Below, in pieces: positions 21,403 to 38,227 of a DNA stretch of 64,000 bases. A program made the translations under genes and the position numbers. Origin of the DNA: Chloroflexota bacterium. GTDB lineage: Bacteria > Chloroflexota > Dehalococcoidia > SHYB01. How positions within the stretch are numbered: the first letter of the stretch is position 1; each line of letters starts with the position of its first letter. Under the pieces are notes generated by a model. The model ran no database searches, was not told the DNA's origin, and saw only the letters and a program-made list of their open reading frames with translations. The DNA lies in contig JACZVV010000001.1 in assembly GCA_022572465.1 (NCBI GenBank), positions 2,749 to 66,748 of the forward strand, read 5' to 3'.

Positions 21403-21430
21403 GAGGCAGGGACGGTCCTGTCCCTGCCTC
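21403..21430. terminator. Bidirectional intrinsic-terminator-like hairpin between convergent genes
   Basis: GAGGCAGGGAC-GGTCCT-GTCCCTGCCTC, a perfect 11-bp GC-rich stem. Confidence 0.5.
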
Positions 21431-21492
21431 CGTTGGGCGGTGACCGGCGCCGGTCGTGGCCCGGACGGTATTTCGGCGTCAGCGGAGGGGGC

Positions 21493-21777
21493 TTACCAGC
21501 GTCCGCCGCCGCCGCCACCGCCGCCTTGCCGGGGCTCCCGAGGGCGAGCTTCGTTCACCGTGAGGGTGCGCCCCTGGAGCTCTTTGCCGTTCAAGGCCTG
21601 GATCGCCGCCTCGGCCTCGGCATTGTTGGGCATCTCGATGAAGCCGAAGCCCTTCGACCGGCCCGAATACTGATCGTTGATCAGTCGAGCGGCATCGACC
21701 TGGCCAAAGGGGGTGAAGGCCGCTTCCATATCCTGCTCGGTGGTTTCGTACGATAGATTCCCGACATAGATGTTCAC
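21493..21777 (-). CDS. RRM-type RNA-binding protein with C-terminal poly-Gly tail
   Basis: GTG start (VNIYVGNLSY = RNP2; KGFGFIEM = RNP1). Ends RQGGGGGGGGRW. AAGGAG RBS. Confidence 0.85.
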   Translation of the reverse strand: MNIYVGNLSYETTEQDMEAAFTPFGQVDAARLINDQYSGRSKGFGFIEMPNNAEAEAAIQALNGKELQGRTLTVNEARPREPRQGGGGGGGGRW

Positions 21778-21946
21778 GCTACGCTCCTTGTGCGTAAGAT
21801 TGTCCCTCGGAGTAGCAAGCGTCGCGTGCACCGGCCGGAGCATTGGGGTGGGAGGCGGAGACGTAACAGTCGCAATCACTTGGACGGCGATATTATACCA
21901 CGCCGGGCGTTTGTCAAGGGAATGCACCCTGCGTGACTGCCCCGAA

Positions 21947-21991
21947 TGGTGGGCGGTACTGGAATCGAACCAGTGACCCCTTGCGTGTGAA
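21947..21991 (-). repeat. 45-bp copy of the 3' part of tRNA-Val(CAC), from the anticodon loop to CCA; attL-type direct repeat
   Basis: Identical to 38125..38169. Upstream sequence diverges from the tRNA 5' half. Confidence 0.8.
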
Positions 21992-22455
21992 ACTCAGGCC
22001 AACGGGTTCGCCGGCCTCCACCACCATACGCCAACGGAAGAGACATGCGTCTCGACAGTCCACGTCTATCCGCACCCATTCGGTGCGATTCGGCCCCGTT
22101 GCTACATTATTTGCTACAGTCGCTCCCTGTAGGATGCTTCAGAGCCATGGTGGCGCTGCGGCGCTCGGGGTCGAGGTTGCCCCCAACGACGTAAGTCTTA
22201 CAGCCGCAGTCCCCACAGAGAACGGCCGCTCCCAAGCACTCCCAGGTAGCCAACCGCCACTCCTGATACGCTCCCGCCACGCTCCGACGTGTGTTAGCAG
22301 CTCCCAACCAGTCCGTTAGCAAATCGGTTAGCGAAACTGCCCCCGGCCCAAGGCATCCCCGCCTGCGTAAAGCAGCAGAGCGTCAGCCTGAACGGGCTGG
22401 GCGTGGCGGCTGAAGTGAACGTGTGGGCGAGGCGACGGCTGGATGCGTAGACCCT

Positions 22456-22779
22456 CTACGGTGCCCCAGGTAGGCTCTCGCTGGCTATCCCGTCGCCGTT
22501 TCGGTCCAGCCTAGGGGGATCGTTCGCCAGCCCTCCGGCAGCCAGATAGAAGTCCCGGGCCTGCTGCCACATAGGAAAGTCCCCACAGTTCCGGTCGGTT
22601 CCAGCCGCGTCAAAGAGCAGGCCAGGGTTAGCTGCCGGTCGTTGGGTGGACGGCGCGGGCTCGGTAGAGGTTACAGGCTCGAAGGCTGGTTGCTCCACGC
22701 TTCCCTCGATGACGACCTGGGCTGAGCAAGTCCCCAGCATATCGGTGAGGGCGCTCCATTGATCTGCCGTCGCGGTCAA
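22456..22779 (-). pseudogene. Excalibur (extracellular Ca-binding) domain fragment, C-terminal part of a split DUF1524-Excalibur nuclease gene
   Basis: NCGDFPMWQQARDFYLAAGG...LDRNGDGIASE matches the Excalibur consensus. Begins inside the 21-bp direct repeat. Confidence 0.5.
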
Positions 22780-22792
22780 GCTCCAGGTTGCC
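22766..22792. repeat. Direct repeat GCCGTCGCGGTCAAGCTCCAG(G/T)TTGCC, copy A
   Basis: 21/21 identity, then 5/6, with 36090..36116. Confidence 0.55.
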
Positions 22793-22890
22793 GGTACGCC
22801 CCATGGGTCTTAGTATGAGCACGTCAACATGAGCACGTCGATGCTCAAGCGATCGGATCGCCGCGCCGCGGCCAGCCAAGGAGGTTCCGC

Positions 22891-24087
22891 ATGACCACCG
22901 AGACCGAGATCAAGCTGAAGATCGTCGACGCCGACGGCCACTATCTCGAGCCGGCCTTCGAGCTGCCCGACTACATGGAGCCGAAGTACCGGGACGCCGC
23001 GCCCCGCATCGTCAAACGGGATGACGGCTTCGAGTATTGGGAGGGGCGCGACTGGACTGAGGAAACCGGCATCTTCGGCGGCGCCCAGACGCGGCGGGCG
23101 CTTGCCATCGCCGGGCTGGCCGGCGTCGAGCGTTGGAACGTGGTCAAAGACGACCCGGACAAAGCCCTGAACTACACTCAGATGAACCCGGCCAGCTTGG
23201 ACCCCATCGCGCGGCTCAAGGTCCTGGACGAGGAGCGCATGGACGCCGCTGTCCTGTACCCCACCTTCAACCTCAATTTCCGCACCGACGCCGAATTCCA
23301 GATGGCGCTCAACCGGGCGCTGAACGATTGGCTGGCCGATCGCTATATAAGCGCCGACCCCCGCCGGTTGTATGGCGTCACGAACATCGTCACGCTGCAC
23401 GACGTGGACGCCGCTTGCCGCGAGGTCGATCGTTGCGCTAAGCAGCATGGATTCAAGGCCACCTATCTCCGTCCCGGTCTTCCCACCGCCGAGGCCCGCT
23501 GGTGGAAGCGCGACTTCGATCGTTTCTGGGCCACCTGCCAGGACCTCGATGTCGCGGTCGCGTTCCACCCCTTCTCAGTCGACAGGATGTACGGGGCCAA
23601 CCGCGACCTCGACCTGCTCGGTCCGGCGGCCGAGCAGCAGTTCCTGCGCGCCGTGCTCACCCATCCCGTCGATGCGCTGAACGCTGTCTGTGGAATTATC
23701 GTTGGCGGTGTGCTCGAACGGTTCCCTGGCCTGCGATTCGCGATTCTCGAGTCCGGAGGCGGCTGGCTCGTGCCTATGCTCGAGCGCCTTGACCACCGGT
23801 TCGAACACATGGGCTGGAGACTCAAAGACCTGAGCATGAAACCCAGCGACTACTTCCGGCGGCAAGGCTGGATATCGTTCGATCCGGACGAGGCGACCCT
23901 TGGGGTTACAGCCGCGTGGCTGGGCGCTGATCGCATCATCTGGGGCTCCGACTTTCCGCACCCGGACGCCTTCTACCCCAACTTCGTGGATACTCTGAAC
24001 GGCCAGATCGCCGCGCTCCCGCAGGAGGACCAGGACCGCATCCGCGGCCTTAACGCCGTGGACTTCTACAAGTTGCCCAATAACTAG
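22891..24087 (+). CDS. Amidohydrolase-2 family hydrolase
   Basis: 398 aa; VDADGHY, WGSDFPHPD. About 55-60% identical by eye to 20176..21390. Confidence 0.85.
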   Translation: MTTETEIKLKIVDADGHYLEPAFELPDYMEPKYRDAAPRIVKRDDGFEYWEGRDWTEETGIFGGAQTRRALAIAGLAGVERWNVVKDDPDKALNYTQMNPASLDPIARLKVLDEERMDAAVLYPTFNLNFRTDAEFQMALNRALNDWLADRYISADPRRLYGVTNIVTLHDVDAACREVDRCAKQHGFKATYLRPGLPTAEARWWKRDFDRFWATCQDLDVAVAFHPFSVDRMYGANRDLDLLGPAAEQQFLRAVLTHPVDALNAVCGIIVGGVLERFPGLRFAILESGGGWLVPMLERLDHRFEHMGWRLKDLSMKPSDYFRRQGWISFDPDEATLGVTAAWLGADRIIWGSDFPHPDAFYPNFVDTLNGQIAALPQEDQDRIRGLNAVDFYKLPNN

Positions 24088-24279
24088 AACTCGGCCGGCG
24101 CCAGGCGCCGATCGCCGCACGCCGCAGGCCGCACGCCGCACGATTGAGGATGCCGGAACAAACACGGCGCAGGCCCAGCGGCTGCGACGGGTTCTCCGTG
24201 GCCCGTTTCTCCAGGCCCTGGCCGAAGTAGACGTCATCGCACGAGAAATGGGTAGCTCCTCTTCGGCGGAGATGGCGCA

Positions 24280-25404
24280 ATGAAGTTCTCCACATTCCAT
24301 TCGTTCATGCTGGTCGATGCCATAAGGGGGGGCAAGCTGCCGGATGACGTCGACGCCGGCATCCTTCCACAGCATTATGATCAAGTCGTCTCCACCCACC
24401 ATAATGAGATTCAGATGGAACTCGAGGAGATACGTTGGGTGGAGGAGCTGGGGTTCGACGGCGTGTGGCTGCGGGAGCATCACTTTACAGACTACGGCTT
24501 CCTACCGAATACGATGGTCATGCTCGGCTACATCGCGTCCATGACGAAGAGGATTCGGTTAGGCAGCGCCGTCGTTACGTTGCCGCTCCACAACCCGGTG
24601 CGCGCTGCCGAAGACGCCGCACTCGTCGACGTTATCAGTAACGGTAGACTCAATTACGGGATCGGTCGAGGATATCAGTCGATCGAATTCGATACCCTCG
24701 GCGTTCCCATGGACGACTCGAGGGAGCGTTGTTCAGAAGAAATAGAATCCATCATCCAGCTTTGGTCTAACGACACCGCGAGCTATCACGGCCGGTTCGT
24801 GGATTTCGAGCAGGTACGGCTTCAGCCGAAGCCCCTGCAACAGCCGCACCCCCCGGTCTTCTACGCCTCGATCAGCAAAGAGAGCGTCCTGCACTTTGCC
24901 AAGCTTGGCATACCATTCATTGTGGACTCGACGCTGACGCTCTCGAGCCTGGACCAACTGTGCGCCGCATGGAGCGAAGTCGCCAGTGCGCACGGCCACG
25001 ATCCGGGCTCTGGTGAGTTGGTGGCGATGCGCACCGTCTGGCTGGACGAGACAGATGAGCGGGCCAGAGAGTACGTGGGGAGGGCGCCGAAGGTGGAGTC
25101 CACGGCGCACGACCCGAAGTTGGCTCCACGGAAAAAGGATGGGAGCATAGCCCGAGGCTACGAATACTGGCAGAGGGGATGGCATGGGCGTTCGCTCAAA
25201 CACTACGACACCTCGGAGAATTGGGAGAATCGCTGGATCGCGGGCGATATCGATCGTGTGGTCGGTGGCATCGAGAGACTCGAAGAGATGGGGGTAAAAA
25301 ACCTAATTGTCGGGTTCGGATCGGACCCCGAACCGACCTCCCGAGCCGAGAAGCGCCGCCGCATGGAGTTATTCGCGAGAGAGGTTATGCCTCACTTTCG
25401 GTGA
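24280..25404 (+). CDS. Luciferase-like monooxygenase family (flavin/F420-dependent) oxidoreductase
   Basis: 374 aa LLM TIM-barrel signatures (GFDGVWLREHHF, GRLNYGIGRGY). Confidence 0.8.
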   Translation: MKFSTFHSFMLVDAIRGGKLPDDVDAGILPQHYDQVVSTHHNEIQMELEEIRWVEELGFDGVWLREHHFTDYGFLPNTMVMLGYIASMTKRIRLGSAVVTLPLHNPVRAAEDAALVDVISNGRLNYGIGRGYQSIEFDTLGVPMDDSRERCSEEIESIIQLWSNDTASYHGRFVDFEQVRLQPKPLQQPHPPVFYASISKESVLHFAKLGIPFIVDSTLTLSSLDQLCAAWSEVASAHGHDPGSGELVAMRTVWLDETDERAREYVGRAPKVESTAHDPKLAPRKKDGSIARGYEYWQRGWHGRSLKHYDTSENWENRWIAGDIDRVVGGIERLEEMGVKNLIVGFGSDPEPTSRAEKRRRMELFAREVMPHFR

Positions 25405-25603
25405 TGGCAGCAACCACCCGGATAGCACCTTCCCGAACTCTCAGGCCGGCATCGCCAAGATTTTCAGTGACCCCGCCGGAGGCAGGACAGAAGGTTACGC
25501 GAGACAACGCCGCCAACCTGTATGGCTTCCGAGAGGCGCTGAAGACCTGATATCCCCGACACCTGGGCCGTCCGCAGCGAGGGTTCTCCCCAGGCGCTCG
25601 GCT

Positions 25604-26353
25604 TCACTCCCAGGCGCTCACGTCTACACCCATGGCCCGGTATCGCTCCACCATAGCCTGGCCGCCCCCCGGGTCGGGGCCGCGGTCGTAGTCCCAGTGG
25701 CGGATCCTGGCGATTTCGACCCCCATCGGCGGGGCCTCTCCGAGCTTGATCGGCACGATGACGCCCCGTTTGTCCGGAAACGCCCGTTCCCACTCCGCCA
25801 CATGCTCCGCGGAGATGAAGAAGTTGATGCTGTCGCAGGTGACGTTCCACTCCTCCCGAAAGCGGTTCGGATGGATGCCGATGTGGAGGACCGTCGTCGG
25901 CGGGTCGAGCGCCACGACGATGAGGTCCTTGGTCTCAAACCGGATGGGCTCCCAGCAGTCCGGGCAGAACGAATCGATAATCGCCGTGCGGCCCGGGAAC
26001 ATGCCCCCGACGGCGCAGCACTCGCCGCCGCACCCCACGTACCACTTGCTCTCGCCGTCCACGGTCAGCCGGTGCCGGGTCGGCACGTTGCTAAACGGCG
26101 GCATTTTGCTGATCGTCTCCGTCCCAGGGACGAACATCACCTGGACACCCCGCTCTAGCTGGTGCAGGGAGTGCCAGGTGGTCCGCTGGTCCAGGCCAAG
26201 GTCCCGCATGATCTGGGCCAGGTTCGGCCCGCGACCGTGCTCAATGAAAGAGTCCTCCAGATAACGCCTGACCCGCTTCGCATTCTCGGTGAGCTCGAAC
26301 CATTCGCTGGCTGTGTTGCCGTAGACGCCGTAGGGGGCATGGAAGGCATGCAT
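25604..26353 (-). CDS. Alkylmercury-lyase (MerB) family protein, divergent
   Basis: Segments align by eye to MerB: YVGCGGECCA against YAWCALD (Cys96 region, with Glu where MerB has Asp99), NVTCDSINFFISAEH-EW against QSFCCHVHFFASV-EDW (Cys159 region). Confidence 0.5.
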   Translation of the reverse strand: MHAFHAPYGVYGNTASEWFELTENAKRVRRYLEDSFIEHGRGPNLAQIMRDLGLDQRTTWHSLHQLERGVQVMFVPGTETISKMPPFSNVPTRHRLTVDGESKWYVGCGGECCAVGGMFPGRTAIIDSFCPDCWEPIRFETKDLIVVALDPPTTVLHIGIHPNRFREEWNVTCDSINFFISAEHVAEWERAFPDKRGVIVPIKLGEAPPMGVEIARIRHWDYDRGPDPGGGQAMVERYRAMGVDVSAWE

Positions 26354-26401
26354 CCAACTCTCCTTTTGGGCGGCGTGCGTCCGAAGGGCGCCCTGAGGCC
26401 G

Positions 26402-26590
26402 TTATCTGCCGAAGGCCGGCTGTTCCCGCCCCGGGTCTCCCGCCGGACGCTCAATCTTGACGACCTCGGCTCCCTGGTCGGCCAGCAGCATCCCCAGCAG
26501 AGGCCCGGCGACGTAGTGGCCGGCGTCGAGCACGCGCTCCCCGCGCAGAGCGCCCGTGGGTGTTGGTGTCGGACGTAGGTTGATGGTCAT
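26402..26590 (-). pseudogene. N-terminal 62-aa remnant of a family-III CoA-transferase (CaiB/BaiF)
   Basis: [31 protein letters not shown] is the canonical N-terminus, followed by a stop. Confidence 0.5.
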
Positions 26591-26874
26591 ACGCGTCCCG
26601 GATCAGGTTGGCTTACCCAGATATCGTGGGGCGGATTCTACGCGGGCTCTATACGCCCGTCAATTGGGATCTGACGCCCAGGCAAGGGTGATCTTGCGAT
26701 GCACGGTCTCCCTATGGCTCCCGAAAACGTCATTGGCATGTCTGCACCTGGAGCACACCCGTCGCCGGCCTCCATCCGGCACCTGGGTATTGAACGTCCT
26801 TGGGGTCATTGGAGGCGATGATGGGCGCCCAAGGGTGAGGTGCGTCCCCGGGGAGTTGTAAGGGAGGACAACCG

Positions 26875-27528
26875 GTGACAGCTGCCTCTGTTCCTCGCCG
26901 AACGCTAACCAGAGTCGCCGACGAGATGGACCTCCCGTTCTGGGAGGGCGCCGTCCAGGGCAAGCTCCTCGTCCAGCGCTGTAAGGATTGCAACCGCTAC
27001 TACTGGCCGGTCAGCATCTGCGTGCAGTGCTCCAACCGGGACCTGGAGTGGGTGGAAGCCACCGGGCGAGGCGCCGTGTACACCTTAACCTTCATCCACC
27101 CGGCCCTTTCTGCTGGCCTGCGCTGTGAACACCCTTATAATGTGACCGTCGTCGAGCTGGAAGCGGGGCCGCTGATGTTTATCAACATCGTCGACTGCCC
27201 CAGCGACCAGATCGAGGTCGGCATGCCGGTGGAGGTGACGTTCAAAGAGATGGAGGCCGGTGGGAGCGTTCCCGAGTTCCGGCCCGTGCAGTCACAGCCG
27301 CGCCTGACGACGCAAGCGTCTGCGAGTCAAGGAGGGATTCATGGCACAGGAGTATCGGATCATCTCGGCGGATTCTCACGTGAACCCGCGGCCCACGTTC
27401 TGGCGGGACTACCTGCCGGGGAAGTTGGCCGAGCGGGCGCCCCAGGTGGAAGAGACCGACGAGCAGGACTTTATCTTGTTCGAGGGGAACCGCACCCCCT
27501 ACATCATGCTGTCGTCGTTGGCGGGTAA
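26875..27528 (+). CDS. Zn-ribbon / OB-fold protein (DUF35, thiolase-partner type)
   Basis: CKDCNRYYWPVSICVQC zinc ribbon. Paralog of 31069..31488. Conserved region ends about 27290; the ORF has no stop until 27528 and overlaps the next gene, so the true 3' end is uncertain. Confidence 0.65.
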   Translation: MTAASVPRRTLTRVADEMDLPFWEGAVQGKLLVQRCKDCNRYYWPVSICVQCSNRDLEWVEATGRGAVYTLTFIHPALSAGLRCEHPYNVTVVELEAGPLMFINIVDCPSDQIEVGMPVEVTFKEMEAGGSVPEFRPVQSQPRLTTQASASQGGIHGTGVSDHLGGFSREPAAHVLAGLPAGEVGRAGAPGGRDRRAGLYLVRGEPHPLHHAVVVGG

Positions 27529-28426
27529 GAAAGCGGAGGACTTCAAGTTCACCGGCAAGATGAGCGACGCGCGGCCCGGCGGCTGGGACCCCCATGAGCG
27601 CACCAAAGACCAGGACATAGACGGGATCGACGCCGAAGTTCTCTACGGTGGCGGGCCGCTGCGGACGGAGAACAGGGAGCTGGCGGTGGCCAGCCATCGG
27701 GCCTACAACGAGTGGCTGGCGGACTTCTGCAAGGGTGCGCCGGAGCGCCTCCTCGGCATCGCCTACGTGCCAATGTGGGACCTGGAGGAGGCGCTGGACG
27801 AGGTCCGCCACGCCGCCAAGATCGGCCTCCGGGGTGTCCTGATACCCGCGGCCCCACCGGAAGGCGAGTTCGCGGACCCCAAGTACGAAGTCTTCTGGAA
27901 CACCCTCGAAGAGCTCAACATGCCGGCGAACCTGCACGTGGGCTTTAGCGGCGGCCGTACCCCCCGGTTCGACAACTCGACGCATTTCCTCTCGGACATG
28001 CTGATGAGCAAGCTGGGTATGGCGGAACCGGTGGCCAACATGATCTTCTCCGGCATCCTGGCGCGCCACCCCAAGCTCAAGGTGGTGGAGGTGGAAGGCG
28101 GCGTGGGCTGGTGCGCCTTCGCCATCCAATACATGGACCACGTCTGGGAAAAGCACCGCTACTGGACCAAGTCCGATCTCACCGAGCCCCCTAGCTTCTA
28201 CTTCCATCGCCAAATTCGGGGAACGTTCGTCGATGACCCCGTCGCCGTCAACGAGCGCCACACCATCGGCGTCGAGAGCATCATGTGGTCTTCGGACTAC
28301 CCTCACAGCGAGACCCCGTGGCCCAACTCGAGGCAGAGCATCGCGAAGCACTTCGCGGGGGTGCCCGAAGACGAGACCTTCAAAATGATCTGCGGCAACG
28401 CCCAGAGGCTCTACAACATCTACTGA
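27341..28426 (+). CDS. Amidohydrolase-2 family hydrolase
   Basis: 361 aa; ISADSHV N-terminus, WSSDYPH motif, AAGGAGG RBS. Confidence 0.85.
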   Translation: MAQEYRIISADSHVNPRPTFWRDYLPGKLAERAPQVEETDEQDFILFEGNRTPYIMLSSLAGKKAEDFKFTGKMSDARPGGWDPHERTKDQDIDGIDAEVLYGGGPLRTENRELAVASHRAYNEWLADFCKGAPERLLGIAYVPMWDLEEALDEVRHAAKIGLRGVLIPAAPPEGEFADPKYEVFWNTLEELNMPANLHVGFSGGRTPRFDNSTHFLSDMLMSKLGMAEPVANMIFSGILARHPKLKVVEVEGGVGWCAFAIQYMDHVWEKHRYWTKSDLTEPPSFYFHRQIRGTFVDDPVAVNERHTIGVESIMWSSDYPHSETPWPNSRQSIAKHFAGVPEDETFKMICGNAQRLYNIY

Positions 28427-28445
28427 CGCGGCCAGCACCAGCAAC

Positions 28446-28478
28446 AAAGAGAGGGGCCCGATGTCGGCCCCTCTCTTT
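28446..28478. terminator. Bidirectional terminator-like hairpin between convergent genes
   Basis: AAAGAGAGGGGCC-cgatgtc-GGCCCCTCTCTTT, a 13-bp perfect stem flanked by T/A runs. Confidence 0.5.
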
Positions 28479-28491
28479 CATTTGACCCGCG

Positions 28492-29721
28492 TTAGACCAC
28501 GCCGCTTTTCCGCATGGCGTCCAGGCGGCTATCCTCGAATCCGAGCAACTGACGGTAGACGTCGTCGTTGTGCTCCCCGAGCTGCGGCGCACGCGGACCA
28601 TGGCGCCACGGCATCGCCGGAGATACCCAAGGCGAGGCGGGATACGTGAACGATTTCCCAACCTCCGAATGCTCGATTTCCGCGAAGTTGCCTCGCCCGA
28701 CAAAGTGCTCGTCGTTCAGGCTGCCCTCGGGCGGCCGCACCGTCGCCCAGATGACGCCTCGGTTTTGGGCGTCGAGCATGAGCTCGTCGGCATTGTGCTG
28801 CGCGATGAACTTGCGCCGCACGTCGTTGATGTGGCCCATCTCCTTGACGCGGGCGGATGGAATCGTGTATCGCTCGTCCGCCAGGTCTTCCGCCATCCCA
28901 TACTCGTCCAGCATGGCCGCCTCCCGCTCCCACTCCCCAGGGAACAGGCCGCCGCTCGTGATCATATTGTAGCCGTCCTTAGAGAGGATATCGCCCTGGT
29001 ACGTTGGCCGGCGGGGGCTCACCATTCGGCCAACCTCGTACACGGACAAGTTGTTCTCCGTGCAGGTGTTGACGGCCGTATGGATCGAAAAGTCGATGTA
29101 CTGGCCGCGGCCGGTCATCCGCTGATGCCAGAGCGCTGCCAGCGCGTCCATCGTCGCCATTGAGCAGGAGATGTGCGACGACTGCCACATCTGGGGCGCG
29201 ATAGGCGGTGTGTCGAATTCGCCGTCCGCATTTGGGCCGTACCCGCAGATCTTCGTCTGTCCACCGAGCGCGAGAAACACCAGGTCGGACCCCTTGTAGT
29301 CTCGCCAGGGACCCGTCTCGCCGAAGTCCGACATCGCCAGCACGATCAGCCGGGGATTGTCTGCCTGCAGGGTCTCGAAACCCAACCCGAGGTCGGCGAG
29401 ATATCCAGGCCGCGACGTAAGCAGCAGCAAATCTGCTTTCTTCAGGAGCTCCCTGAACACGCCGCGGCCCTCGCCGTTCTCCAGGTCCAGCGTGATCCCC
29501 TTCTTTCCGACGTTGTAGTGCCAGAAATGGAGACTCCGCTCGGCGCCGGGCTCGTCCCGGTAGAACGGTCCGATGCGCCTCGTCGGCGAACCTCCCGGGG
29601 GCTCGACCTTGATGACGTTCGCCCCCATCCCGGCGAGCAGCTTGCCGCAGAACTCCCCCCGCCAGTCCGCGAGCTCGATGATGGTGAAGTCGTCCAGAGC
29701 CATCGGATGCACCTCGGCCAT
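28492..29721 (-). CDS. Family-III CoA-transferase (CaiB/BaiF)
   Basis: Start MAEVHPMALDDFTIIELADWRGEFCGKLLAGMGANVIKVEPPGG with AGGAGGG RBS. The upstream 52 aa of the track ORF are shadow. Confidence 0.85.
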   Translation of the reverse strand: MAEVHPMALDDFTIIELADWRGEFCGKLLAGMGANVIKVEPPGGSPTRRIGPFYRDEPGAERSLHFWHYNVGKKGITLDLENGEGRGVFRELLKKADLLLLTSRPGYLADLGLGFETLQADNPRLIVLAMSDFGETGPWRDYKGSDLVFLALGGQTKICGYGPNADGEFDTPPIAPQMWQSSHISCSMATMDALAALWHQRMTGRGQYIDFSIHTAVNTCTENNLSVYEVGRMVSPRRPTYQGDILSKDGYNMITSGGLFPGEWEREAAMLDEYGMAEDLADERYTIPSARVKEMGHINDVRRKFIAQHNADELMLDAQNRGVIWATVRPPEGSLNDEHFVGRGNFAEIEHSEVGKSFTYPASPWVSPAMPWRHGPRAPQLGEHNDDVYRQLLGFEDSRLDAMRKSGVV

Positions 29722-29732
29722 GATTCGCCCTC

Positions 29733-31016
29733 CTAGATGACACCCTGCTCCGCCAGCTTCCCGACATCCGACTCGCCAAGCCCAAGCAGCTCTCCGAACA
29801 CCCGCTGGTTGTGCTCCCCATAGCAGGGTGCCCCCCAGCCGATGGCCCCCGAGGCGTGGGGCTGCGTCTCGGACCACCTCCCCACAATTCCCTCGACCCG
29901 GTACTTGCCGACCTCCGTGTGGTCCACCTGCTGCATGTAGCCGCGGTGAATGAGCTGCTCGTCGAGCTCGATGCGATCCTTCGTGTCCTCACAGACGCCC
30001 GCCGGGACGCCGGACTTCTGAAGCAGCTGCATCACCTCGTAGCGCTCTCGGTCCTGCGTCCAAGCCGTGACAAGCGCATCCAGGGCGTCCTGGTTCTCGT
30101 AGCGGGACTCTGTGGACGCGAACCTAGCGTCATCCGTCCACTCGGGGTCCCCGATAGCGTGGCAAAAGGCCCGCCACTCCTCGTCCGTGGAAATGGCGAT
30201 CGCGACCCAGGTGTCGTCGCCTTGCGTGCGATACACGCCGTGAGGCGCCGCCTTCGTGTACGGCGCTCGATTCCCAGAGCGCTCGTAATGGCGGCCGTTG
30301 GCGGTGTAGTCGAGGATGGCCGTCCCCGTCAGGAGGAAGCCGGGCCCTACCTGGGAGAGGTCGATGTGTTGCCCCCGGCCCGTCTTCGCGCGCAGGTGCA
30401 GCGCCGACATCACGGCCATGACGATGAACCAAGGGCCCCCCACGTCCAGGTACGAGAACCCATAGCCGCAGGAAGCCCTGTCGGGCAGACCGGACATGAA
30501 TTGGAGTCCGCTGACGCCGGCCGCTATTGGCCCGTAGGAGCGAAAATCGCGATAGGGCCCGAGCTTGCCGAAACCCGGCGCCTGCACATAGATGATGTCT
30601 GGCTTGACCTTCCGCATCTCCTCGTAGCCGAAGCCCCAGCGCTCCAGCGTCTGCGCCGTGTAGTTGTCCGTCACGACGTCCGCGAGCGGCAGCATCTCGC
30701 GGAACAGCTCCTTGCCGTGGGGGTGGTGCATGTTCAACGACACGCCGAGCTTTCCGGCGTTCGTGTTGTTCCACCCCGCGGCGCGGTTCACGCTCTGCAC
30801 TTTTGACCGGTCGAAGCTGCCTCGATCGCCGGTCGGCGGCGCCGATTCGCCTGGCGCCGTGTGCTGCGGAAAGCCGTACCGGATGAAGTCGAGCTTCTCG
30901 GTCCATTCGATACGGATGACCTCGGCGCCGAACGCCGCCAGGTGGCGCGGCCCCTTCGCCCCGGCGTTCAGCCACGTGAAGTCCAAGACCCGTATGCCTT
31001 CGAGGGGTTTCGGCAT
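29733..31016 (-). CDS. Family-III CoA-transferase (CaiB/BaiF)
   Basis: 427 aa; GIRVLDFTWLNAGAKGPRHLAAFGAEVIRIE N-terminus. Confidence 0.85.
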   Translation of the reverse strand: MPKPLEGIRVLDFTWLNAGAKGPRHLAAFGAEVIRIEWTEKLDFIRYGFPQHTAPGESAPPTGDRGSFDRSKVQSVNRAAGWNNTNAGKLGVSLNMHHPHGKELFREMLPLADVVTDNYTAQTLERWGFGYEEMRKVKPDIIYVQAPGFGKLGPYRDFRSYGPIAAGVSGLQFMSGLPDRASCGYGFSYLDVGGPWFIVMAVMSALHLRAKTGRGQHIDLSQVGPGFLLTGTAILDYTANGRHYERSGNRAPYTKAAPHGVYRTQGDDTWVAIAISTDEEWRAFCHAIGDPEWTDDARFASTESRYENQDALDALVTAWTQDRERYEVMQLLQKSGVPAGVCEDTKDRIELDEQLIHRGYMQQVDHTEVGKYRVEGIVGRWSETQPHASGAIGWGAPCYGEHNQRVFGELLGLGESDVGKLAEQGVI

Positions 31017-31068
31017 ACTCGCCTCCTTTGGCCGACCTCACCGCGCCCTAGCGAAAGTCCGGGCCGAT

Positions 31069-31488
31069 CTAGCCCGTTGCCGGACGGAACTGGGGCAGCG
31101 TGCCGCCCCCGTCGAGGTCGGTGAATGTGACCTCGACGGGCATGCCAAGCTCGATCTCGTCGTTGCCGCATCCGACAACATTAGTGAACATGAGCGGCCC
31201 CTCGTCTAGCTCGACGACGGTGACATTGTAGGGAGTGTCCGCCGCCCAGTTCTGGAGCCAGGGCCGGTGGATCACGGTGAACGTGTAGACCTTGGCCTTG
31301 CCGCAGGCCTCGACCCAAGGCAGGTCCTGCTTGCCACACTGCATGCATATGCTCGCGGGCCAGTAGTAGCGGTCGCAGGTCGCGCAGTGCTGGATCAGCA
31401 GCTTGTGCCGCGCGGCCCCCTCCCAGAACGGGAGGTCGAGCTCGTCGGCGACGAACTGCTTCGGGTCAGGCTTCTGCGTTGTTGTCAT
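31069..31488 (-). CDS. Zn-ribbon / OB-fold protein (DUF35)
   Basis: Start MTTTQKPD; CATCDRYYWPASICMQC. Forms a pair with the downstream thiolase-like gene, as in SCP-x/ChsH2-Ltp2-type systems. Confidence 0.75.
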   Translation of the reverse strand: MTTTQKPDPKQFVADELDLPFWEGAARHKLLIQHCATCDRYYWPASICMQCGKQDLPWVEACGKAKVYTFTVIHRPWLQNWAADTPYNVTVVELDEGPLMFTNVVGCGNDEIELGMPVEVTFTDLDGGGTLPQFRPATG

Positions 31489-31492
31489 TAGC

Positions 31493-32626
31493 CTACTTCC
31501 CCAGCACCACGCAGCCGTGGGCCCAGGTGTTCTGTACGCCGGCGTTGGCACCGTGCCCGGTCACAAGCGCGATCTCGGCGTCCTTGACCTGCGTCTCGCC
31601 GGCCTGGCCCCGCATCTGAAACAGGCCCTCCGAGAGGGCCGTGTACCCCATGACGTACCATCCCGAGAGCTGCCCTCCGCCCGTGTTCGTCGGGATGCGC
31701 CCGTCGAGGCGGGTGTCGCCGCCCATCACGAAGGGCCCGCCCTCGCCCTCGTTGCAGAAGCCGTAGCCCTCCAGCTGCATGATCACGTTGATGGAGAAGG
31801 CATCGTAGCATTGAAAGACGTCCACGTCAGCCGTGGTGATGCCCGCCATGCGGAAGGCCGACTCCTTGGCGGTGGCGCAGTCGAGGCCGTTGTAGAGGCT
31901 CTTGTCGTGCCAGCGCCGGATGTTGTGCCCCACTCCGAGGCCTCGGATGAAGACTGGTTTGGACTTCAGGTTGCGAGCGCGCTCCGCCGTTGTCACGATC
32001 ATCGCCACGCCCCCGTCGGTGTCGCGGGTGCAGTCGAGCCGCCGCAGCGGAGCGCAGATCATCGGCGAGTTGTAGTAGTCCTCGAGCGTGATCGGATTGC
32101 CGTACTCGATGGCGTCGGGACGCTTGCAGGCATGCTCGCGCTGCACGACCGCGACCGTTCCCAACTGGTCCGGCGTCGTGCCGTAAACGCCCATGTGGCG
32201 GCTGGCGTGAAAGGCGTGCGAGGCCACTGGGCTCACCAGGCCCCACGCCTGCGCGATGCCATAGCCGTGCCCGCCGATCTGCGCCCGCGTGCTCCACGGA
32301 CGGTGAGCCCCGACCAGCAGCACCGTCTCGGCGAGGCCCGCTTCCATCGCGCCGCAGGCGGCCATAACCGTCGCGCTTGCCGTCGCACCGCCGGTCTGCA
32401 TGTACCACGAAAACTTGGGCGTCAGCCCCAGGTAGCGTAGGTCCACGACGGACGGGTCCTGGTGCCCGTAGATGTACCCGTCGATGTCCTTCCGTTCGAG
32501 CCCTGCGTCGTCCAGAGCCTCCTTCACGGCCCAGGCCACGACCTGACGCGTCGTGTAGTCGGGCAGCTTGCCCTGCTTGGTGATCCCCAGGCCGACGATG
32601 GCATACTTGCCCGATTCGATGGCCAT
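31493..32626 (-). CDS. Thiolase-like (SCP-x / nonspecific lipid-transfer-protein type) protein
   Basis: Start MAIESGKYAIVGLG with GAGGAGG RBS; thiolase-fold C-terminal GxG motifs. The upstream 159 aa of the track ORF are shadow. Confidence 0.8.
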   Translation of the reverse strand: MAIESGKYAIVGLGITKQGKLPDYTTRQVVAWAVKEALDDAGLERKDIDGYIYGHQDPSVVDLRYLGLTPKFSWYMQTGGATASATVMAACGAMEAGLAETVLLVGAHRPWSTRAQIGGHGYGIAQAWGLVSPVASHAFHASRHMGVYGTTPDQLGTVAVVQREHACKRPDAIEYGNPITLEDYYNSPMICAPLRRLDCTRDTDGGVAMIVTTAERARNLKSKPVFIRGLGVGHNIRRWHDKSLYNGLDCATAKESAFRMAGITTADVDVFQCYDAFSINVIMQLEGYGFCNEGEGGPFVMGGDTRLDGRIPTNTGGGQLSGWYVMGYTALSEGLFQMRGQAGETQVKDAEIALVTGHGANAGVQNTWAHGCVVLGK

Positions 32627-33132
32627 GGTGAAACCTCCTCGCATGTGGGCGTCGCAGGACGTGCCCATTGTAGACTCCCGTCGGCTGTACCGGCAACGGG
32701 CGAGTTGACTTAGGCTGTACTGAGATGGAGATGGAGATGGAGGGGAAGGGGACGGCTCACCGAATACGCCGGCTGGTTGCATCGGTCCGTGCAGCTTGTT
32801 GGGCGATGGGAGTGCGCCGATACCACGAGAATGGTCAACATCGAGAGGACGGCCAAGCTCCTGCGCTTCACCGAACGTTGCTCGGCCCTGGAGGCGGTGG
32901 GGCTGGTGAGCACCATCTACGCCTCGGGCCCGCTTGCGATCGGGCAAAGGCGGCGGTAGGCGGTGACTATGCCCTCGGCAGCTGATCGCAGATCCTCCAG
33001 ATCCACGGGGACGGAGTCGAGTAGTTCCTGGTCCCTTGCCGCCTTTATGTCGTCCAGGAGTGTAGCCGCCGCTTGCCACGCCGGTGGCAATGCCGCCCGC
33101 CACCCACTACAATAGGTCGGGCCAACCCCGTT

Positions 33133-33182
33133 GGAGGGATGGCAGAGTGGACGAATGCGGCGGTCTTGAAAACCGCCGCCCA
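33133..33182 (+). tRNA. 5' fragment (acceptor 5' strand, D-arm, anticodon arm) of a tRNA-Ser(UGA)-like gene; 3' half absent
   Basis: GGAGGGATGGCAGAGTGGACGAATGC-GGCGG-tCTTGAAAa-CCGCC parallels bacterial tRNA-Ser(UGA) through the anticodon stem-loop. Downstream sequence lacks a T-arm and CCA. Confidence 0.5.
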
Positions 33183-33284
33183 GTGTCGGATAGGTAAGAG
33201 CCGGTAGGCATCAGTCTGCCGGCTCTTCTGTTGTGTACGGTTGCGTCTGGTCGCGTTAGCCTGGGTTACGTATCAAAAGACGTA

Positions 33285-33473
33285 TCAATTTTGAACCCGT
33301 TGGCGCGCTCGGTCCGCGCTGGCACCACCTCCGATTGCTTCTTGCACACGTCGGCGGGTCCGGTATCCCGAGAACCAGCGGTACTTCAGCTTCCCGTCAG
33401 ATGGGTCGCGGCCCAGGTAGATCACCACGGCCCAGCTGTTGGACTTGGCTCGGCGGCGGATGTGGCCCTTCAT
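33285..33473 (-). pseudogene. N-terminal AP2/arm-binding domain fragment of a tyrosine integrase
   Basis: MKGHIRRRAKSNSWAVVIYLGRDPSDGKLKYRWFSGYRTRR matches the integrase N-terminal consensus (KGSIRKR..SW...YLGRDP.GKR). Stops after 62 aa. Convergent with the tRNA-Ser fragment. Confidence 0.55.
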
Positions 33474-33580
33474 TGTGGCGATTATAGCAACGACAAAGAC
33501 GAGGGAAGTGAAAAACGGAGGGTCAGAAGCAAAGGAATAGGCAGGCCAGAGTTCCCTAGCCCGCCTATGACCTCTCGGAG

Positions 33581-33814
33581 CTACTTGTTGCCCCGAGGCT
33601 TGTGGCCTTCACGTTCGGCGAAGGCATCTATCTTGCCTTCCTCCCAATCACGAGCTGTTTCGTTCTTGACGCGAGGGCCTTCTATTCGAAGAGTGTCACC
33701 AAGTCCAGCGGCCCGGTTCTCGGCCTCACGGCGTTCGGGGTTGTCGGTGATGCCGAACTTGATGATCTTGTTACCGTCTCGCATCGTGTATCGATAGGTA
33801 TCGCGGTCTGCCAT
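33581..33814 (-). CDS. Small hypothetical protein
   Basis: 77 aa ORF with acceptable codon usage; no recognisable motif. Confidence 0.3.
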   Translation of the reverse strand: MADRDTYRYTMRDGNKIIKFGITDNPERREAENRAAGLGDTLRIEGPRVKNETARDWEEGKIDAFAEREGHKPRGNK

Positions 33815-33903
33815 TTGTTTCTCACCTCCTGACTACCACAGATTTTCAAGGGCCAAGCCCAAGCGACGCGTGGGAAAGCGTCTAAGAAGATCTTCATAGA
33901 ACG

Positions 33904-34440
33904 TTAGGGTGGATCGGGAGCCATTGCCTCTTTCAACAAATCGGAGGTTTTGGCCCACTCAATCACGCCATTGCGTTCGTTGGCCGATGGGGCTTTTTCC
34001 AATACGGTCTGAACCATCAATCTCGCCATATGCTGGCCAAGGTTCCAACCCACCGCCCGCAACCCCTCCTTGGAAATGATCGTGTACATTGGGCCATCGA
34101 AGTGAGTCAGGGCCTCCGGATCAGGGTCGAAGGTACGAGCGAGTACGTCCTTTACCGCGGCATCGTCCATCGCTCGCATGAACAGTTGCGCTCCCGGGTT
34201 GTCCAACGCTTTCGTCAATAGCCGCCGCGCCAACGTGGTGACGCCGACCTCCTGAGCCCTCGCCAATTGCTTCAACTTCTTCAGGTGCTCTTGGTCCAGC
34301 CTGATGCTCAACACCGCCGACAGCGGCCGCTTCACTTCGAACTCTACCTCTTCGGTGTTCTCATCAGCTTCCCCCATTTCGTGCGTGGCAAAATACTCTG
34401 CTGCTTCCTTGTCGCTCATCTTGTCATGCGGTGGTTTCAT
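33904..34440 (-). CDS. Ribbon-helix-helix (BrnA/CopG-like) antitoxin-type protein with C-terminal extension
   Basis: LSIRLDQEHLKKLKQLARAQEVGVTTLARRLLTKAL RHH motif. Immediately downstream of the BrnT-like gene. Confidence 0.45.
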   Translation of the reverse strand: MKPPHDKMSDKEAAEYFATHEMGEADENTEEVEFEVKRPLSAVLSIRLDQEHLKKLKQLARAQEVGVTTLARRLLTKALDNPGAQLFMRAMDDAAVKDVLARTFDPDPEALTHFDGPMYTIISKEGLRAVGWNLGQHMARLMVQTVLEKAPSANERNGVIEWAKTSDLLKEAMAPDPP

Positions 34441-34470
34441 GACATGGTCCTCCTTTTGGTTGTCCCGCCG

Positions 34471-34801
34471 TTAACGCGCTCCTTTCCTGCTTTTGGGCTT
34501 GGCCCGGCGTTGCTCTGTGATCGTGGCATCCATCGCGGTGACGACGCGCCACACACCTTCATCCTCTCTGCCCAGCACTATTTTTAGATGCCGACCGGCA
34601 TCGGTCTTGCCGAATACCAGGTAAAACTTGCCTTCGCGACGGCCGTATGTCCTGTTGGCGACGGCCGTATGTCCTGTTGGCGACGGCCTCTTCGACCTCA
34701 TCGAGGATGACTTGATGACGGGCCAGTATGTGATCCTCAGCCCATTCAGTCCACCTCAGCTCGTCGATTTGGAACACGCCCCGGACTCCTTTCGGCTTCA
34801 C
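34471..34801 (-). pseudogene. BrnT (DUF497) family toxin disrupted by a 22-bp tandem duplication
   Basis: N-part FQIDELRWTEWAEDHIL...EEAVANRTYGRR in one frame; C-part VANRTYGRREGKFYLVFGKTDAGRHLKIVLG in another. The peptide VANRTYGRR is encoded twice. Confidence 0.55.
34639..34682. repeat. Exact 22-bp tandem duplication ACGGCCGTATGTCCTGTTGGCG x2
   Basis: Read directly from the sequence; it frameshifts the BrnT-like ORF. Confidence 0.8.
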
Positions 34802-34907
34802 CGGTTCCTATGTAATACATTGTAATACATTCGCCTCCGGCTGTCAAGCCTTTTGGGGTCCAAATCGGGTGAGTTTCCAGTGACGACACGCCCTCGCCAC
34901 CTACCCA

Positions 34908-35186
34908 TTGCCCGTCCAGGCCCGACCGCCTAGACTCCCGGCCATGCGCCCCGACTACCTGGCCCTACGACCCGACGGGTCCATCGTGGACACCCGTCTG
35001 CGCTTCGGCAGAGACGATCGCGTGCGCATCACCCGGGGACCGCACGCCGGCAGCCTGGCCACCGTTGAGTCACTTCTCGGGTGCTGGATCAAGGACAACT
35101 CGCCACAGAGCGAGCCTGGGTACAACGTGGCCTTGGACGGCGGCGACGTCGTGAGCGTGCGGTGGGACTGGGTTGCTCCGGTGTAG
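34908..35186 (+). CDS. Hypothetical protein (KOW-like motif)
   Basis: 92 aa ORF; DRVRITRGPHAGSLATVES resembles a KOW motif. Confidence 0.3.
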   Translation: MPVQARPPRLPAMRPDYLALRPDGSIVDTRLRFGRDDRVRITRGPHAGSLATVESLLGCWIKDNSPQSEPGYNVALDGGDVVSVRWDWVAPV

Positions 35187-35300
35187 AACGAGCCACTATC
35201 TTCAGTAGCGAAGCCACCCGGCGATGTGCGGACGGTTCACGCTGAAAAATGATCTCAGCGCGTTTGAGTTGCGATTCAACTTTCGAGGCGACGATCTCGA

Positions 35301-35810
35301 CTACCGGCCCCGCTCCTGTCTGTCGATGGCCTCCTGGTACCGCTGCGAAACGTCGGCCTGGGTCTCGCGTTGCTCGGGCGTCCACCACGTTTTGATGAAC
35401 GAGAGCACCGCGCTGACCTCCGCTACCGAAAGCCTGTCCCCGAACGCGGGCATGGCACCCGGGAACTTGCCGTTCAACACCCAATCCGTGAGCTGAGCGT
35501 CAGGGTGATGCCAAGTGTGTCCCGTCTCGTTATGGGGGGGTGCGCCGACCACCCCTCCCTGACCACTCTGAGTCCCGTGACAAACCTGGCAGTTGGCCCC
35601 GTACAGCGGCTCACCCGGGTGTGAGCCTCCGGCTTCCTCCTCCTCTTGAGCGATCTCAGGGGAGGGCGAAGGGGTCGACGCCAAAACGGCGGGTGGCGAT
35701 GGTGCGTCGGCATCCGTCGGTCGGGATTCACCCCCCGAACACGCCGTCACTACTAGCGCTACCGCCAACCCGGCCACAGCGAGAACCACCCTTGATGACC
35801 GTCTTGGCAT
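35301..35810 (-). CDS. c-type cytochrome lipoprotein
   Basis: Signal peptide with lipobox (LVVTAC) and heme-binding CQVCH. Confidence 0.7.
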   Translation of the reverse strand: MPRRSSRVVLAVAGLAVALVVTACSGGESRPTDADAPSPPAVLASTPSPSPEIAQEEEEAGGSHPGEPLYGANCQVCHGTQSGQGGVVGAPPHNETGHTWHHPDAQLTDWVLNGKFPGAMPAFGDRLSVAEVSAVLSFIKTWWTPEQRETQADVSQRYQEAIDRQERGR

Positions 35811-36089
35811 CGCCACCCCCCTGTCTGAACCCGGCTGCATTGTATGGCTGCGGACGGGCCCGTGGTCAAGTGAGGACAGACGGGTGCTAGAATCCGAGGC
35901 GCAGAACCAATTGCTGTAGTCATAGGGGTGGCGTGTGAAAGTCATCTTGGTTGGAATCGAGGCGGCGGTGATACTGACCGGGTGCGAGGCGGAAGAAGCG
36001 CCCAGGGCGCCGTAATGCGGACCGTAGTGTTCTTAGCGACGGCTATGTTGCCGCTGTCAGCTTGTTCTGACGGGGCACCCCATTCATCA

Positions 36090-36116
36090 GCCGTCGCGGT
36101 CAAGCTCCAGTTTGCC
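36090..36116. repeat. Direct repeat GCCGTCGCGGTCAAGCTCCAG(T)TTGCC, copy B
   Basis: Matches 22766..22792. Confidence 0.55.
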
Positions 36117-36127
36117 TTGACCGTGAT

Positions 36128-36328
36128 TCAATTCACGGCGTACTCGCACCAGTAGGATTCTCCTGGAGGACGCCAATCCTCGGGTCCCTTGGCCCCTTTC
36201 GAGCGGTTGGCCGATGCTGTGACGGCGATCAGGTGGCCGTCGAACGAGAGGTCATTGGCGTAGTCTTCCTTCGTCTCGGCGGCCCAGGCCCACCCGCCGG
36301 ACCTATGGGCATTAGCGAGGGGGACCAT
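36128..36328 (-). pseudogene. DUF1524 (GmrSD C-terminal HNH-like nuclease) domain fragment, N-terminal part of a split DUF1524-Excalibur gene
   Basis: [26 protein letters not shown]...YWCEYA matches the DUF1524 His-Me finger consensus. Ends in TGA 7 codons before the 21-bp repeat; read-through of the TGA would give ...LTATADEW, paralleling LTATADQW at the start of 22456..22779. Confidence 0.5.
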
Positions 36329-36448
36329 GCGGTCAACTTGGAGGCTCCTGGTGACTTCAACCTTTGTGTCGGTGTATGGGGCGCGCGCATCTCTCTTGAG
36401 GGTTCCTAGTTTCTATGTACCACCGCGTCTAGCTTGCCCCCGGCACCC

Positions 36449-36459
36449 GGGGGGGGGGG
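36449..36459. repeat. Homopolymeric G11 tract
   Basis: cccgggggggggggtagg read directly from the sequence; intergenic inside the island. Confidence 0.6.
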
Positions 36460-36508: not shown

Positions 36509-36892
36509 TCATCCATCCGCCAGGTAATGCGGCGAGTCCGGGACCGGTGGGATCACCTTCCCACCCATTGTCTTCTTCGCCTCGTGAACCAGTCGCAGCC
36601 GCCGCTTGGAAACCCTGCCCGCAAAGCGAAAGAACAGCAGGCCCAACTCATCCAGCGAGTAGTGTACGAAGCCCGCCGGTATGCGCTGCCTTGCTGCGTC
36701 GTCGGTGTAGAAACCCACCAGGTCTTGCAACTCATTGCTCCACAGGAGCGCATACCCGTCTCGCTTCAAGGTGGCCTCGACCTCAGTCATCTCCGCATCG
36801 GTGACCTTCAGGTCATCGGGATACTTCACCGGCCAATCCCGGCGCCGCAGGCGGGCCAGGATCGCAGATTTGTTCGCCCGAAGCTCCTCCAC
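36509..36892 (-). CDS. Hypothetical protein (island-borne)
   Basis: 127+ aa ORF with coding-like composition; the frame stays open upstream of the annotated Met. Confidence 0.35.
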   Translation of the reverse strand: MEELRANKSAILARLRRRDWPVKYPDDLKVTDAEMTEVEATLKRDGYALLWSNELQDLVGFYTDDAARQRIPAGFVHYSLDELGLLFFRFAGRVSKRRLRLVHEAKKTMGGKVIPPVPDSPHYLADG

Positions 36893-37057
36893 TTCCTCTG
36901 GCGTGAGGGCTTCCTTGGGTGCCCATCGCAGGTTGTCGCCGTGGACTTCAAGAACGACGCCGCGACGAACTCCATCTCCAGCAGTGGGAGCACAGGGAGC
37001 CCCACCTGAAACCCGATAGAGTCTTTTGGGGCGTCACCCAAAGAAGGGGGAAAAACG

Positions 37058-38044
37058 ATGACCGGAAAACACAGGGGTAACCAGGAAGGCAGTGTCTACC
37101 AGAGGAAGTCCGATGGGCGATGGGTCGCCGCCAGCGTCGTAGACGGCAAACGCCATGTCCGTTACGGACGCACCCGCCAAGAGGCCGCACAGAAGCTCAG
37201 GGACCTGCATGCACGGCAGGACAAAGGGCTGCCGATGACGACGGCCGGGATATGCCGCTCGGGGACTACCTGGAGCAATGGCTGGCCACCGTCAAGACCC
37301 GGGTCCGGCCTTCCACCTACGAGATGTATGAGGTCATGGTGATGGTCCATCTCACGCCGGCCCTGGGCCACGTCCGCCTGGGCAAGCTGACGCCGGAGGA
37401 TATCGAGAAGGCTTACGCTGCGATGCAAACGGCGGGGAAGTCCGCCAGCGTCATCGAGCATGCCCTCCTCCGCCTCGCGAAGGCCCTGAACGACGCAGTA
37501 CGCCGCCAGCATATCTACCGGAACCCCTGCCATGCCGGGAGCCCGCCCCATCCCTTCCGGCGGGAGTTGGCTCCTATCGAATCCCGGGGCATACAGCGTC
37601 TCCTTGCTGCTGCCCACGAGACTGACTACTACGCCTTGTGCACACCGCCTTACACACGGGCTTCCGACGCAACGAACTCCTGGCCCTCGTACCAGGAACC
37701 CAAGACGGCCAAGGCTCGTTGGCTGGTGGCCCTTACACCATCCTCGGTCGGTGTCCTCAGAGGCTTGTGGACCACCGGAGGCCGAGGGGCCGCAGCTGGG
37801 CTATGAGATTACGGAGGACAGCGCATTTTTCCGCCACCGCGATGGATCGCCCATGCGCATGCTCCGCCAAGGCATCCATCCGAAAATCGTTCAAGAGCGC
37901 CTGGGTCGTTCCCGCGTGGGTGTAACTCTAAGCATCTACAGCCACGTCACGCCGGGATTGCAGGAAGCTGCCGCGTTGCGATTCGAGGAGGCCTTTACGG
38001 TCACCAGCGAGCCGGAGGCCAGCCTGGCTGCGCCAGCGAGATGA
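37058..38044 (+). pseudogene. Tyrosine recombinase / phage integrase with at least three frameshifts
   Basis: Arm-binding N-terminus (GSVYQRKSDGRWVA) in frame a. SAM-like core-binding domain (LGDYLEQWL...) in frame b. LHTGFRRNELLAL box in frame c. C-terminal FRHRDGS...LGRSRVGVTLSIYSHV (catalytic Tyr region) in frame d. Confidence 0.75.
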
Positions 38045-38200: not shown

Positions 38201-38227
38201 CTAGCCCGGCGTGGGGTCTCGACGAAT

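Follow-up and report, generated by a model that had tools for sequence, protein, structure and literature searches.

A catabolic gene block lies within a decayed nuclease gene inside a tRNA-Val island of an uncultured Chloroflexota bacterium

Two pieces of a nuclease gene, one carrying a DUF1524 (GmrSD_C) domain and the other an Excalibur domain, lie 13.3 kb apart in the genome of an uncultured Chloroflexota bacterium, each next to a copy of one short direct repeat. This raises the question whether a single gene was split here and, if so, how the intervening DNA, termed X, came to lie within it. The analysis covered 64,000 nt of contig JACZVV010000001.1 (assembly GCA_022572465.1, positions 2,749 to 66,748 of the forward strand); this stretch is called the window, and all coordinates refer to it. 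The split, the repeat, the contiguity of the two fragments, the nesting of X within an island at a tRNA-Val gene, the empty tRNA-Val site of a related strain and the presence of both X junctions in independent assemblies were observed directly. As to its origin, we lean slightly towards an old integration of the attachment-site (att) type by a now-lost tyrosine integrase, in which a catabolic gene cluster would have been the cargo or a later replacement, and which would since have become fixed and decayed.

The initial annotation had placed a DUF1524 fragment beside one repeat copy and an Excalibur fragment beside the other (Table 1), and both identifications were borne out. The N-terminal fragment scored 29 bits against Pfam GmrSD_C/DUF1524 (cut-off 23) and is 70-78% identical to homologs. 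The C-terminal fragment reached 19 bits against Pfam Excalibur, under the cut-off of 22, and aligned at 50-55% identity over ~110 aa to homologs carrying Excalibur (PF05901). Past the left repeat copy it translates as WSLTATADQWSALTDMLGTC, a Pro/Thr-rich linker and NCGDFPMWQQARDFYLAAGG...LDRNGDGIASESLPGAP, and it reads ...QWSALTDMLGTC...NCGDF...DGIASESLPGAP up to the stop. When both fragments were rejoined through one repeat copy and used as a query, more than 1,000 homologs were obtained, the best being ~60% identical over 95% of the query and the closest intact one ~63% identical. Several are named Chloroflexi proteins from metagenome-assembled genomes, and many carry both PF07510 and PF05901. 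The match to the C-fragment starts 4-7 residues ahead of the end of the match to the N-fragment in 119 of 120 intact homologs, and in the alignment the fragments occupy adjacent columns whose sole overlap is A[N/T]WSLTATAD[E/Q]W[G/S]A. The single gene cut in two that had been proposed, and the contiguity that an alignment of intact homologs over the junction was expected to reveal, were thus both recovered, with the shared WSLTATAD as the overlap; on this evidence the fragments are adjacent parts of one gene type.

The insertion point proved to differ from the one first proposed, which was the linker between the two domains. Since the Pfam GmrSD_C match passes through WSLTATAD to profile position 130 of 138, the repeat still belongs to the nuclease domain, at its C-terminal end. 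The break falls in the last conserved helix or segment of this domain, ~15-20 codons upstream of the Pro/Thr-rich linker. On the gene strand, the attB-type junction formed by joining the N-fragment to the C-fragment reads GGCAAACTGGAGCTTGACCGCGACGGCAGATCAATGG.

The direct repeat contains the 21-mer GCCGTCGCGGTCAAGCTCCAG, which occurs exactly twice in the window, as initially annotated, both times on the + strand. The count stays at two with three mismatches allowed, and the expectation from shuffled sequence is zero. A repeat finder extended the repeat beyond this core to 44 nt with 39 of 44 positions identical, and outside these 44 nt in-register identity and gapped alignment gave background similarity on both sides. 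Both copies encode WSLTATAD on the minus strand in the frame of the nuclease gene, again in agreement with the first reading. Further copies of the 21-mer, a check that had been called for, were sought in metagenome, genome and viral scans. These returned 20 chance loci in unrelated taxa, none of them window-like or encoding a DUF1524 relative, and a dispersed repeat was rejected on this ground.

Two paralogous nuclease genes, for example in tandem islands, could mimic one split gene if they had been truncated independently. In line with this, the similarity rankings of the two fragments over the 120 homologs are uncorrelated (Spearman 0.09), so that a common origin is not positively shown by them. 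However, the fragments overlap by exactly the 44-nt repeat, abut in nearly every homolog as described and lack similarity beyond these 44 nt, and it is very unlikely that two deletions would have stopped at identical codons independently; we therefore give this explanation very little credence.

An assembly or binning chimera, to which the ends of several metagenome assemblies at 22647 and 24146-24232 might point, is refuted: both junctions recur in independent metagenome contigs, and the split is therefore real. The left junction is spanned by L032, which covers 21430-23056 at 98.2% identity in the order RRM gene, att repeat, Excalibur fragment, core and start of an amidohydrolase gene. The right junction, with an identical 44-mer, was found in four contigs from four samples (L026-L029; 99.5-99.7% identity). 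The interior of X is represented by L001 (24146-38167) and L002 (24146-34587) at 99.7-99.8% identity, L025 crosses position 24146, and L038 runs from tRNA-Val into the island at 99.0% identity.

The initial annotation had taken a TGA in the DUF1524 fragment as a sign of decay after the insertion. The in-frame TGA is present at 36128-36130, where it replaces a conserved Trp (NWITVK in homologs), but the decay is far larger than this codon and may have preceded or followed the insertion. The N-terminal half is gone: the first ~150-250 residues of homologs are absent, comprising the signal or transmembrane region, a Pro-rich stretch and the YDRxDWxHW...CTVDTG region. The catalytic DH has become DR (the invariant VDHMVPL reads VDRMVPL), the last conserved Cys of Excalibur is Ser (DGIASES vs DGIACES), and in L032 the C-fragment has lost its conserved EW and reads ADRSSAL. 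An intact open reading frame (ORF) with the N-terminal region and the catalytic D-H was thus not found in this copy. Judged by these changes, the nuclease gene is a pseudogene well past a single TGA, and its C-fragment is evolving neutrally. A run of 11 G (36449-36459) separates the nuclease fragment, at its truncated 5' end, from the island ORF upstream and lies where the deletion presumably occurred.

That X lies within a tRNA-Val island, as had been stated initially, was confirmed by the two 45-nt repeats that enclose it, which are identical at 45 of 45 positions, and by an empty site. A contig of a related strain (L031) joins window 38974-38121 directly to 21991-21303, in the order tRNA-Met, tRNA-Val and then immediately the RRM-protein gene, so that this strain has a genuinely unoccupied site for the 16.1 kb island. 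The outer island therefore combines a repeat of the tRNA 3' part, an adjoining integrase (as a pseudogene) and an empty site in a related strain. Without X it measures only ~2.9 kb, made up of the integrase pseudogene, one ORF of unknown function without a PHROG match and the two nuclease fragments. The integrase pseudogene retains a SAM-like N-terminal domain and remnants of the catalytic domain that are spread over three frames with internal deletions. Integration of X at a secondary site by the tRNA-Val integrase was rejected, as the similarity of the 44-mer to tRNA-Val is not above that of shuffled sequences. The repeats of X differ at 5 of 44 positions vs 0 of 45 for the island; these few differences may hint at a greater age of X compared with the tRNA-Val integration, or at arms that were unlike from the outset. 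Left of 21303, the similarity of related strains (contigs L031, L033 and L034) to the window ceases within the 3' end of the amidohydrolase gene at 20014-21390, so that strain variation extends to the chromosome on the left of the RRM gene.

The larger part of X is taken up by a catabolic cluster whose ORFs have a high guanine-plus-cytosine (GC) content at third codon positions. According to Pfam it encodes two PF04909 amidohydrolases, a luciferase-like monooxygenase, a MerB-like and a thiolase-like protein, two family III coenzyme A (CoA)-transferases and two ChsH2-like OB-fold proteins. The two OB-fold genes form inverted paralogous segments (26914-27284 vs 31082-31452, 73% identity), and a 62-aa CoA-transferase fragment is found at 26393-26581 on the minus strand; both suggest that the cluster has been duplicated and rearranged internally. 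At 22812-22839, immediately ahead of the first cargo gene, the window has a 14-nt tandem duplication (ATGAGCACGTCAAC / ATGAGCACGTCGAT) where L023-L025 have a single copy. In the region 22647-24232, the first cargo amidohydrolase (gene at 22891-24087) is 93-96% identical to a common metagenome allele, in a patchy pattern, vs 98-99.8% for the rest of X, and most members of its protein cluster stem from contigs of 1.4-1.8 kb. This suggests strain mosaicism or gene conversion. The amidohydrolase at 20014-21390, outside the island, is a paralog of this first cargo copy with ~68-72% nucleotide identity.

The remainder of X, at 33.2-36.1 kb, has a GC content of ~0.58 vs ~0.64 and looks like mobile-element debris. 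It holds a tyrosine integrase stub that retains the N-terminal arm DNA-binding domain (MKGHIRRRAKSNSWAVVIYLGRDP), an antitoxin gene, a toxin-like ORF that a 22-bp tandem duplication (34633-34676) has broken into two overlapping ORFs, a KOW-like ORF and a cytochrome c gene. The true start of the last is probably near 35810, which yields the 169-aa protein of the gene calls on L027/L029. Contigs from two samples end at 34587-34594, near the toxin duplication, and this spot may be polymorphic. Downstream of the stub, no integrase-like sequence was found in any frame of 32600-33285. A 188-aa ORF (33231-33797) was considered as a small serine recombinase and rejected because of its low coding quality and the lack of a Pfam match. 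A transposon model was likewise rejected, as Pfam detected no transposase domain in X and an alignment of its ends, which was at shuffle level, revealed no terminal inverted repeats. The same holds for a phage origin: the nuclease query had no relative in viral contigs, and PHROG matches were restricted to the integrase and the CopG-like ORF.

Table 1. Features of the interrupted nuclease gene, the insert X and the surrounding island (window coordinates)
Feature	Position	Strand	Description
Nuclease pseudogene, N-terminal fragment	36090-36412	-	GmrSD_C/DUF1524 His-Me finger region
Nuclease pseudogene, C-terminal fragment	22456-22786	-	WSLTATADQWSALTDMLGTC, Pro/Thr-rich linker, Excalibur, stop at 22456-22458
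Left copy of 44-nt repeat	22749-22792		Perfect core 22766-22786; polymorphic among strains
Right copy of 44-nt repeat	36073-36116		Perfect core 36090-36110; identical in four independent contigs
Inserted segment X	22787-36089		13,303 bp between cores; start-to-start spacing 13,324 bp
Cargo catabolic cluster	22891-32617		~9.7 kb; Pfam, gene calls on L001
Tyrosine integrase stub, 62 aa	33285-33473	-	Arm-DNA-bind_4 PF14657, 26.3 bits, cut-off 22.3
CopG/BrnA-like antitoxin	33904-34440	-	Pfam CopG_antitoxin
Disrupted toxin-like ORF pair	34471-34801	-	Weak DUF4258 match
Cytochrome c, lipoprotein-type signal	35301-35945	-	Pfam Cytochrome_CBB3
Island ORF, unknown function	36509-37000	-	Weak TubC_N-like match
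Outer-island tyrosine integrase pseudogene	37120-38044	+	Pfam Phage_int_SAM_3, PHROG integrase
tRNA-Val(CAC)	38126-38201	-	ARAGORN; 3' 45 nt (38126-38170) = proximal att repeat
Distal att repeat of outer island	21947-21991		Exact 45-nt copy of tRNA-Val 3' part

Besides the arrangement of the window, a second one was encountered in three contigs (L024 = GCA_022570845.1, L025 and L030; haplotype H2). In these, similarity to the window starts at ~22647, which is 119 bp left of the core within the linker-coding part, and the Excalibur part and all else left of this point give way to a different block with Hydantoinase_B, MmgE/PrpD and two Amidohydro_1/3 genes. The H2 block comprises positions 1-6842 of L024, 1-1924 of L030 and 1-8 of L025, and in L024 the join is 20 bp past a stop codon. 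The window version runs on in frame into a genuine Excalibur domain; it is therefore the older of the two arrangements, and H2 is a later replacement. L025 further lacks 2.3 kb of the window (25916-28238), with flanks that overlap by 23 nt; this deletion removes the 5' part of the MerB-like gene, the second ChsH2-like OB-fold gene and the amidohydrolase gene at 27341-28426. Many assemblies end at ~22647 and at 24146-24232, which is most simply explained by coexisting variants, and the locus is a rearrangement hot spot. Another small structural variant was seen ~0.5 kb from tRNA-Ser in L037, where positions 538-760 cover window 48517-48585 twice and contain an inverted 54-nt copy of 48456-48509.

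How X entered the gene can be approached from the order N-fragment, repeat, X, repeat, C-fragment. Apart from the repeat no sequence is duplicated, as would result from a single reciprocal crossover between a circle and the gene. In the course of events that we infer, including the circular intermediate and the catalyst, the nuclease gene would have been cargo of a small integrative island at tRNA-Val, and a circular element X, now 13.3 kb in size, would have integrated into it by conservative att-type recombination. X would have carried a ~44-nt stretch matching the A-N-W-S-L-T-A-T-A-D-E-W-x-A codons at the end of the nuclease domain, and a crossover within the present 21-nt perfect core would have left one copy of this stretch at each junction. 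The likely enzyme would be a tyrosine integrase of X itself, of which the 62-aa arm-binding stub may be the survivor. The catabolic cluster may have been cargo or may have replaced most of the element backbone later. Everything mobile, including both integrases and the toxin gene, would subsequently have decayed along with the nuclease gene, which would leave the arrangement fixed and unable to restore a working gene.

Integration of the att type is favoured because the 44-nt block resembles in length the 45 nt of the tRNA-Val island, a typical size for att sites of tyrosine integrases, and because X contains the stub. The toxin-antitoxin remnant, the lower-GC segment and the lack of inverted ends or a transposase are further support. 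Joining the two ends of X on the gene strand gives the attP-type junction GGCAACCTGGAGCTTGACCGCGACGGCTGATGAATGG. Of the site-specific insertion proposed by the initial annotation, the direct repeat at both junctions and the continuous target, as expected of an att element, were found, whereas an integrase or recombinase of its own in functional form was not found in X, and we only infer the specificity for the site.

Several observations weigh against att-type integration. No contig was found in which the nuclease fragments are joined without X, all four contigs with the 66-aa N-fragment ORF carry X, and the circular junction of the two X ends was not detected in the metagenome, genome and viral contig scans. 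Nor did these scans reveal a second genome in which an element occupies this site. A catalytic recombinase domain is absent from the ORFs and frames of X examined, the integrase stub is located 2.6 kb from the nearest X end, and a word-indexed search for relatives of the stub returned none and was uninformative. In addition, most of X consists of ordinary metabolic genes, and H2 demonstrates that rearrangements not of the att type also occur at the locus. The left repeat copy is variable as well: five haplotypes have 7 segregating sites in the 44 nt, 2 of them within the core, and with core substitutions in strains L023, L024 and L030 the core is not conserved. These data do not set the 21-nt core functionally apart from its flanks or establish an anatomy of core plus arms. 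A perfect duplication of at least 44 nt whose copies then decayed neutrally would account for the five mismatches equally well.

A target-site duplication of this length, arising from the repair of staggered breaks or from a transposition-like event and followed by neutral decay of the copies, would account for the free mutation of core and flanks alike in the left copy. It would also fit the four fixed differences between left and right copies, which all miss the 21-nt core with a chance of ~0.075 by our own calculation, a value that is not significant. Such an origin is nonetheless improbable for a segment that has neither terminal inverted repeats nor a transposase, and the known target duplications of transposons are far shorter than 44 nt.

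The lack of a functional recombinase in X bears on yet another route, a Campbell-type integration in which circular DNA carrying ~44 nt of a homologous nuclease gene entered by short homology, RecA-dependent or illegitimate, with no dedicated recombinase involved. The inner flank of the right copy reads ADEWGA, a plausible variant of the gene in which E is the homolog consensus, as would fit a captured piece of a paralog. Rearrangements not of the att type are also seen at the same locus, namely the break of H2 at 22647 and the deletion in L025, with its 23-nt overlap. The outcome would be indistinguishable from att recombination by sequence alone; 44 nt at ~90% identity are, however, a very poor substrate for homologous recombination, and an integrase stub is present within X, so that we consider this route unlikely. 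X might also be conceived as the decayed relic of an undescribed family of integrative elements in Chloroflexota with an att site at the conserved W-S-L-T-A-T codons near the end of the nuclease domain of secreted DUF1524-Excalibur nucleases. Such elements would disable extracellular nucleases encoded on rival mobile elements and deliver catabolic cargo; this we regard as a long shot.

Taken together, the locus adds a new, unremarkable case to the known nested insertions. With the empty site as a control, it documents that a tRNA-Val island of an uncultured bacterium was emptied and then filled anew with amidohydrolase, CoA-transferase and monooxygenase genes, which lie in a dead gene, and the strain variants indicate that the locus is still being reshuffled. 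Neither is a new mechanism opened nor a standing question answered by it; its use lies in annotation and in thinking about the spread of paralog-rich catabolic clusters.

Proteins that combine DUF1524 with a C-terminal Excalibur domain have been described as putative extracellular nucleases (PMC5714182). The rejoined fragments share this domain order, at the identity of ~60% over 95% of their length given above, and differ from the intact proteins in that the copy found here is a pseudogene in two pieces. A close full-length homolog (P0004; 61% identity overall and the second-best match of the N-fragment) is accompanied on its contig (L036) by a tyrosine recombinase, a SIR2-like gene, a large serine recombinase and a truncated Mg-chelatase/ComM-like gene, and DUF1524-Excalibur nuclease genes may commonly travel on mobile elements.

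Genomic islands at tRNA genes are known to accrete further elements in nested or tandem fashion. The island described here resembles them in its exact 45-nt repeat of the tRNA-Val 3' part, its adjoining integrase, its empty site and the second element nested within it, and it is unlike them in that the outer island has shrunk to ~2.9 kb of debris and the nested catabolic block makes up nearly all of its present length.

Elements and prophages that interrupt coding genes have been described as skin in sigK, SPbeta in spsM, gin in gerE and yin in yabG (PMC4191935, PMC5595907, PMC10747680). The hosts of these elements are spore-formers, whereas X resides in an uncultured Chloroflexota bacterium. 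They keep a working recombinase, often together with a directionality factor, and their excision restores the gene to function. The recombinase of X, in contrast, is a stub, and no excised form was seen; rejoining would yield a gene that remains defective, with its N-terminal half missing, DR in place of DH and the TGA. Lacking both a recombinase and a target that excision could revive, X falls short of what defines an active intervening element. What it shares with skin, SPbeta, gin and yin is its layout: a kilobase-scale element in a coding sequence, bounded by short direct repeats, with the two halves of the gene contiguous once the element and one repeat copy are taken out.

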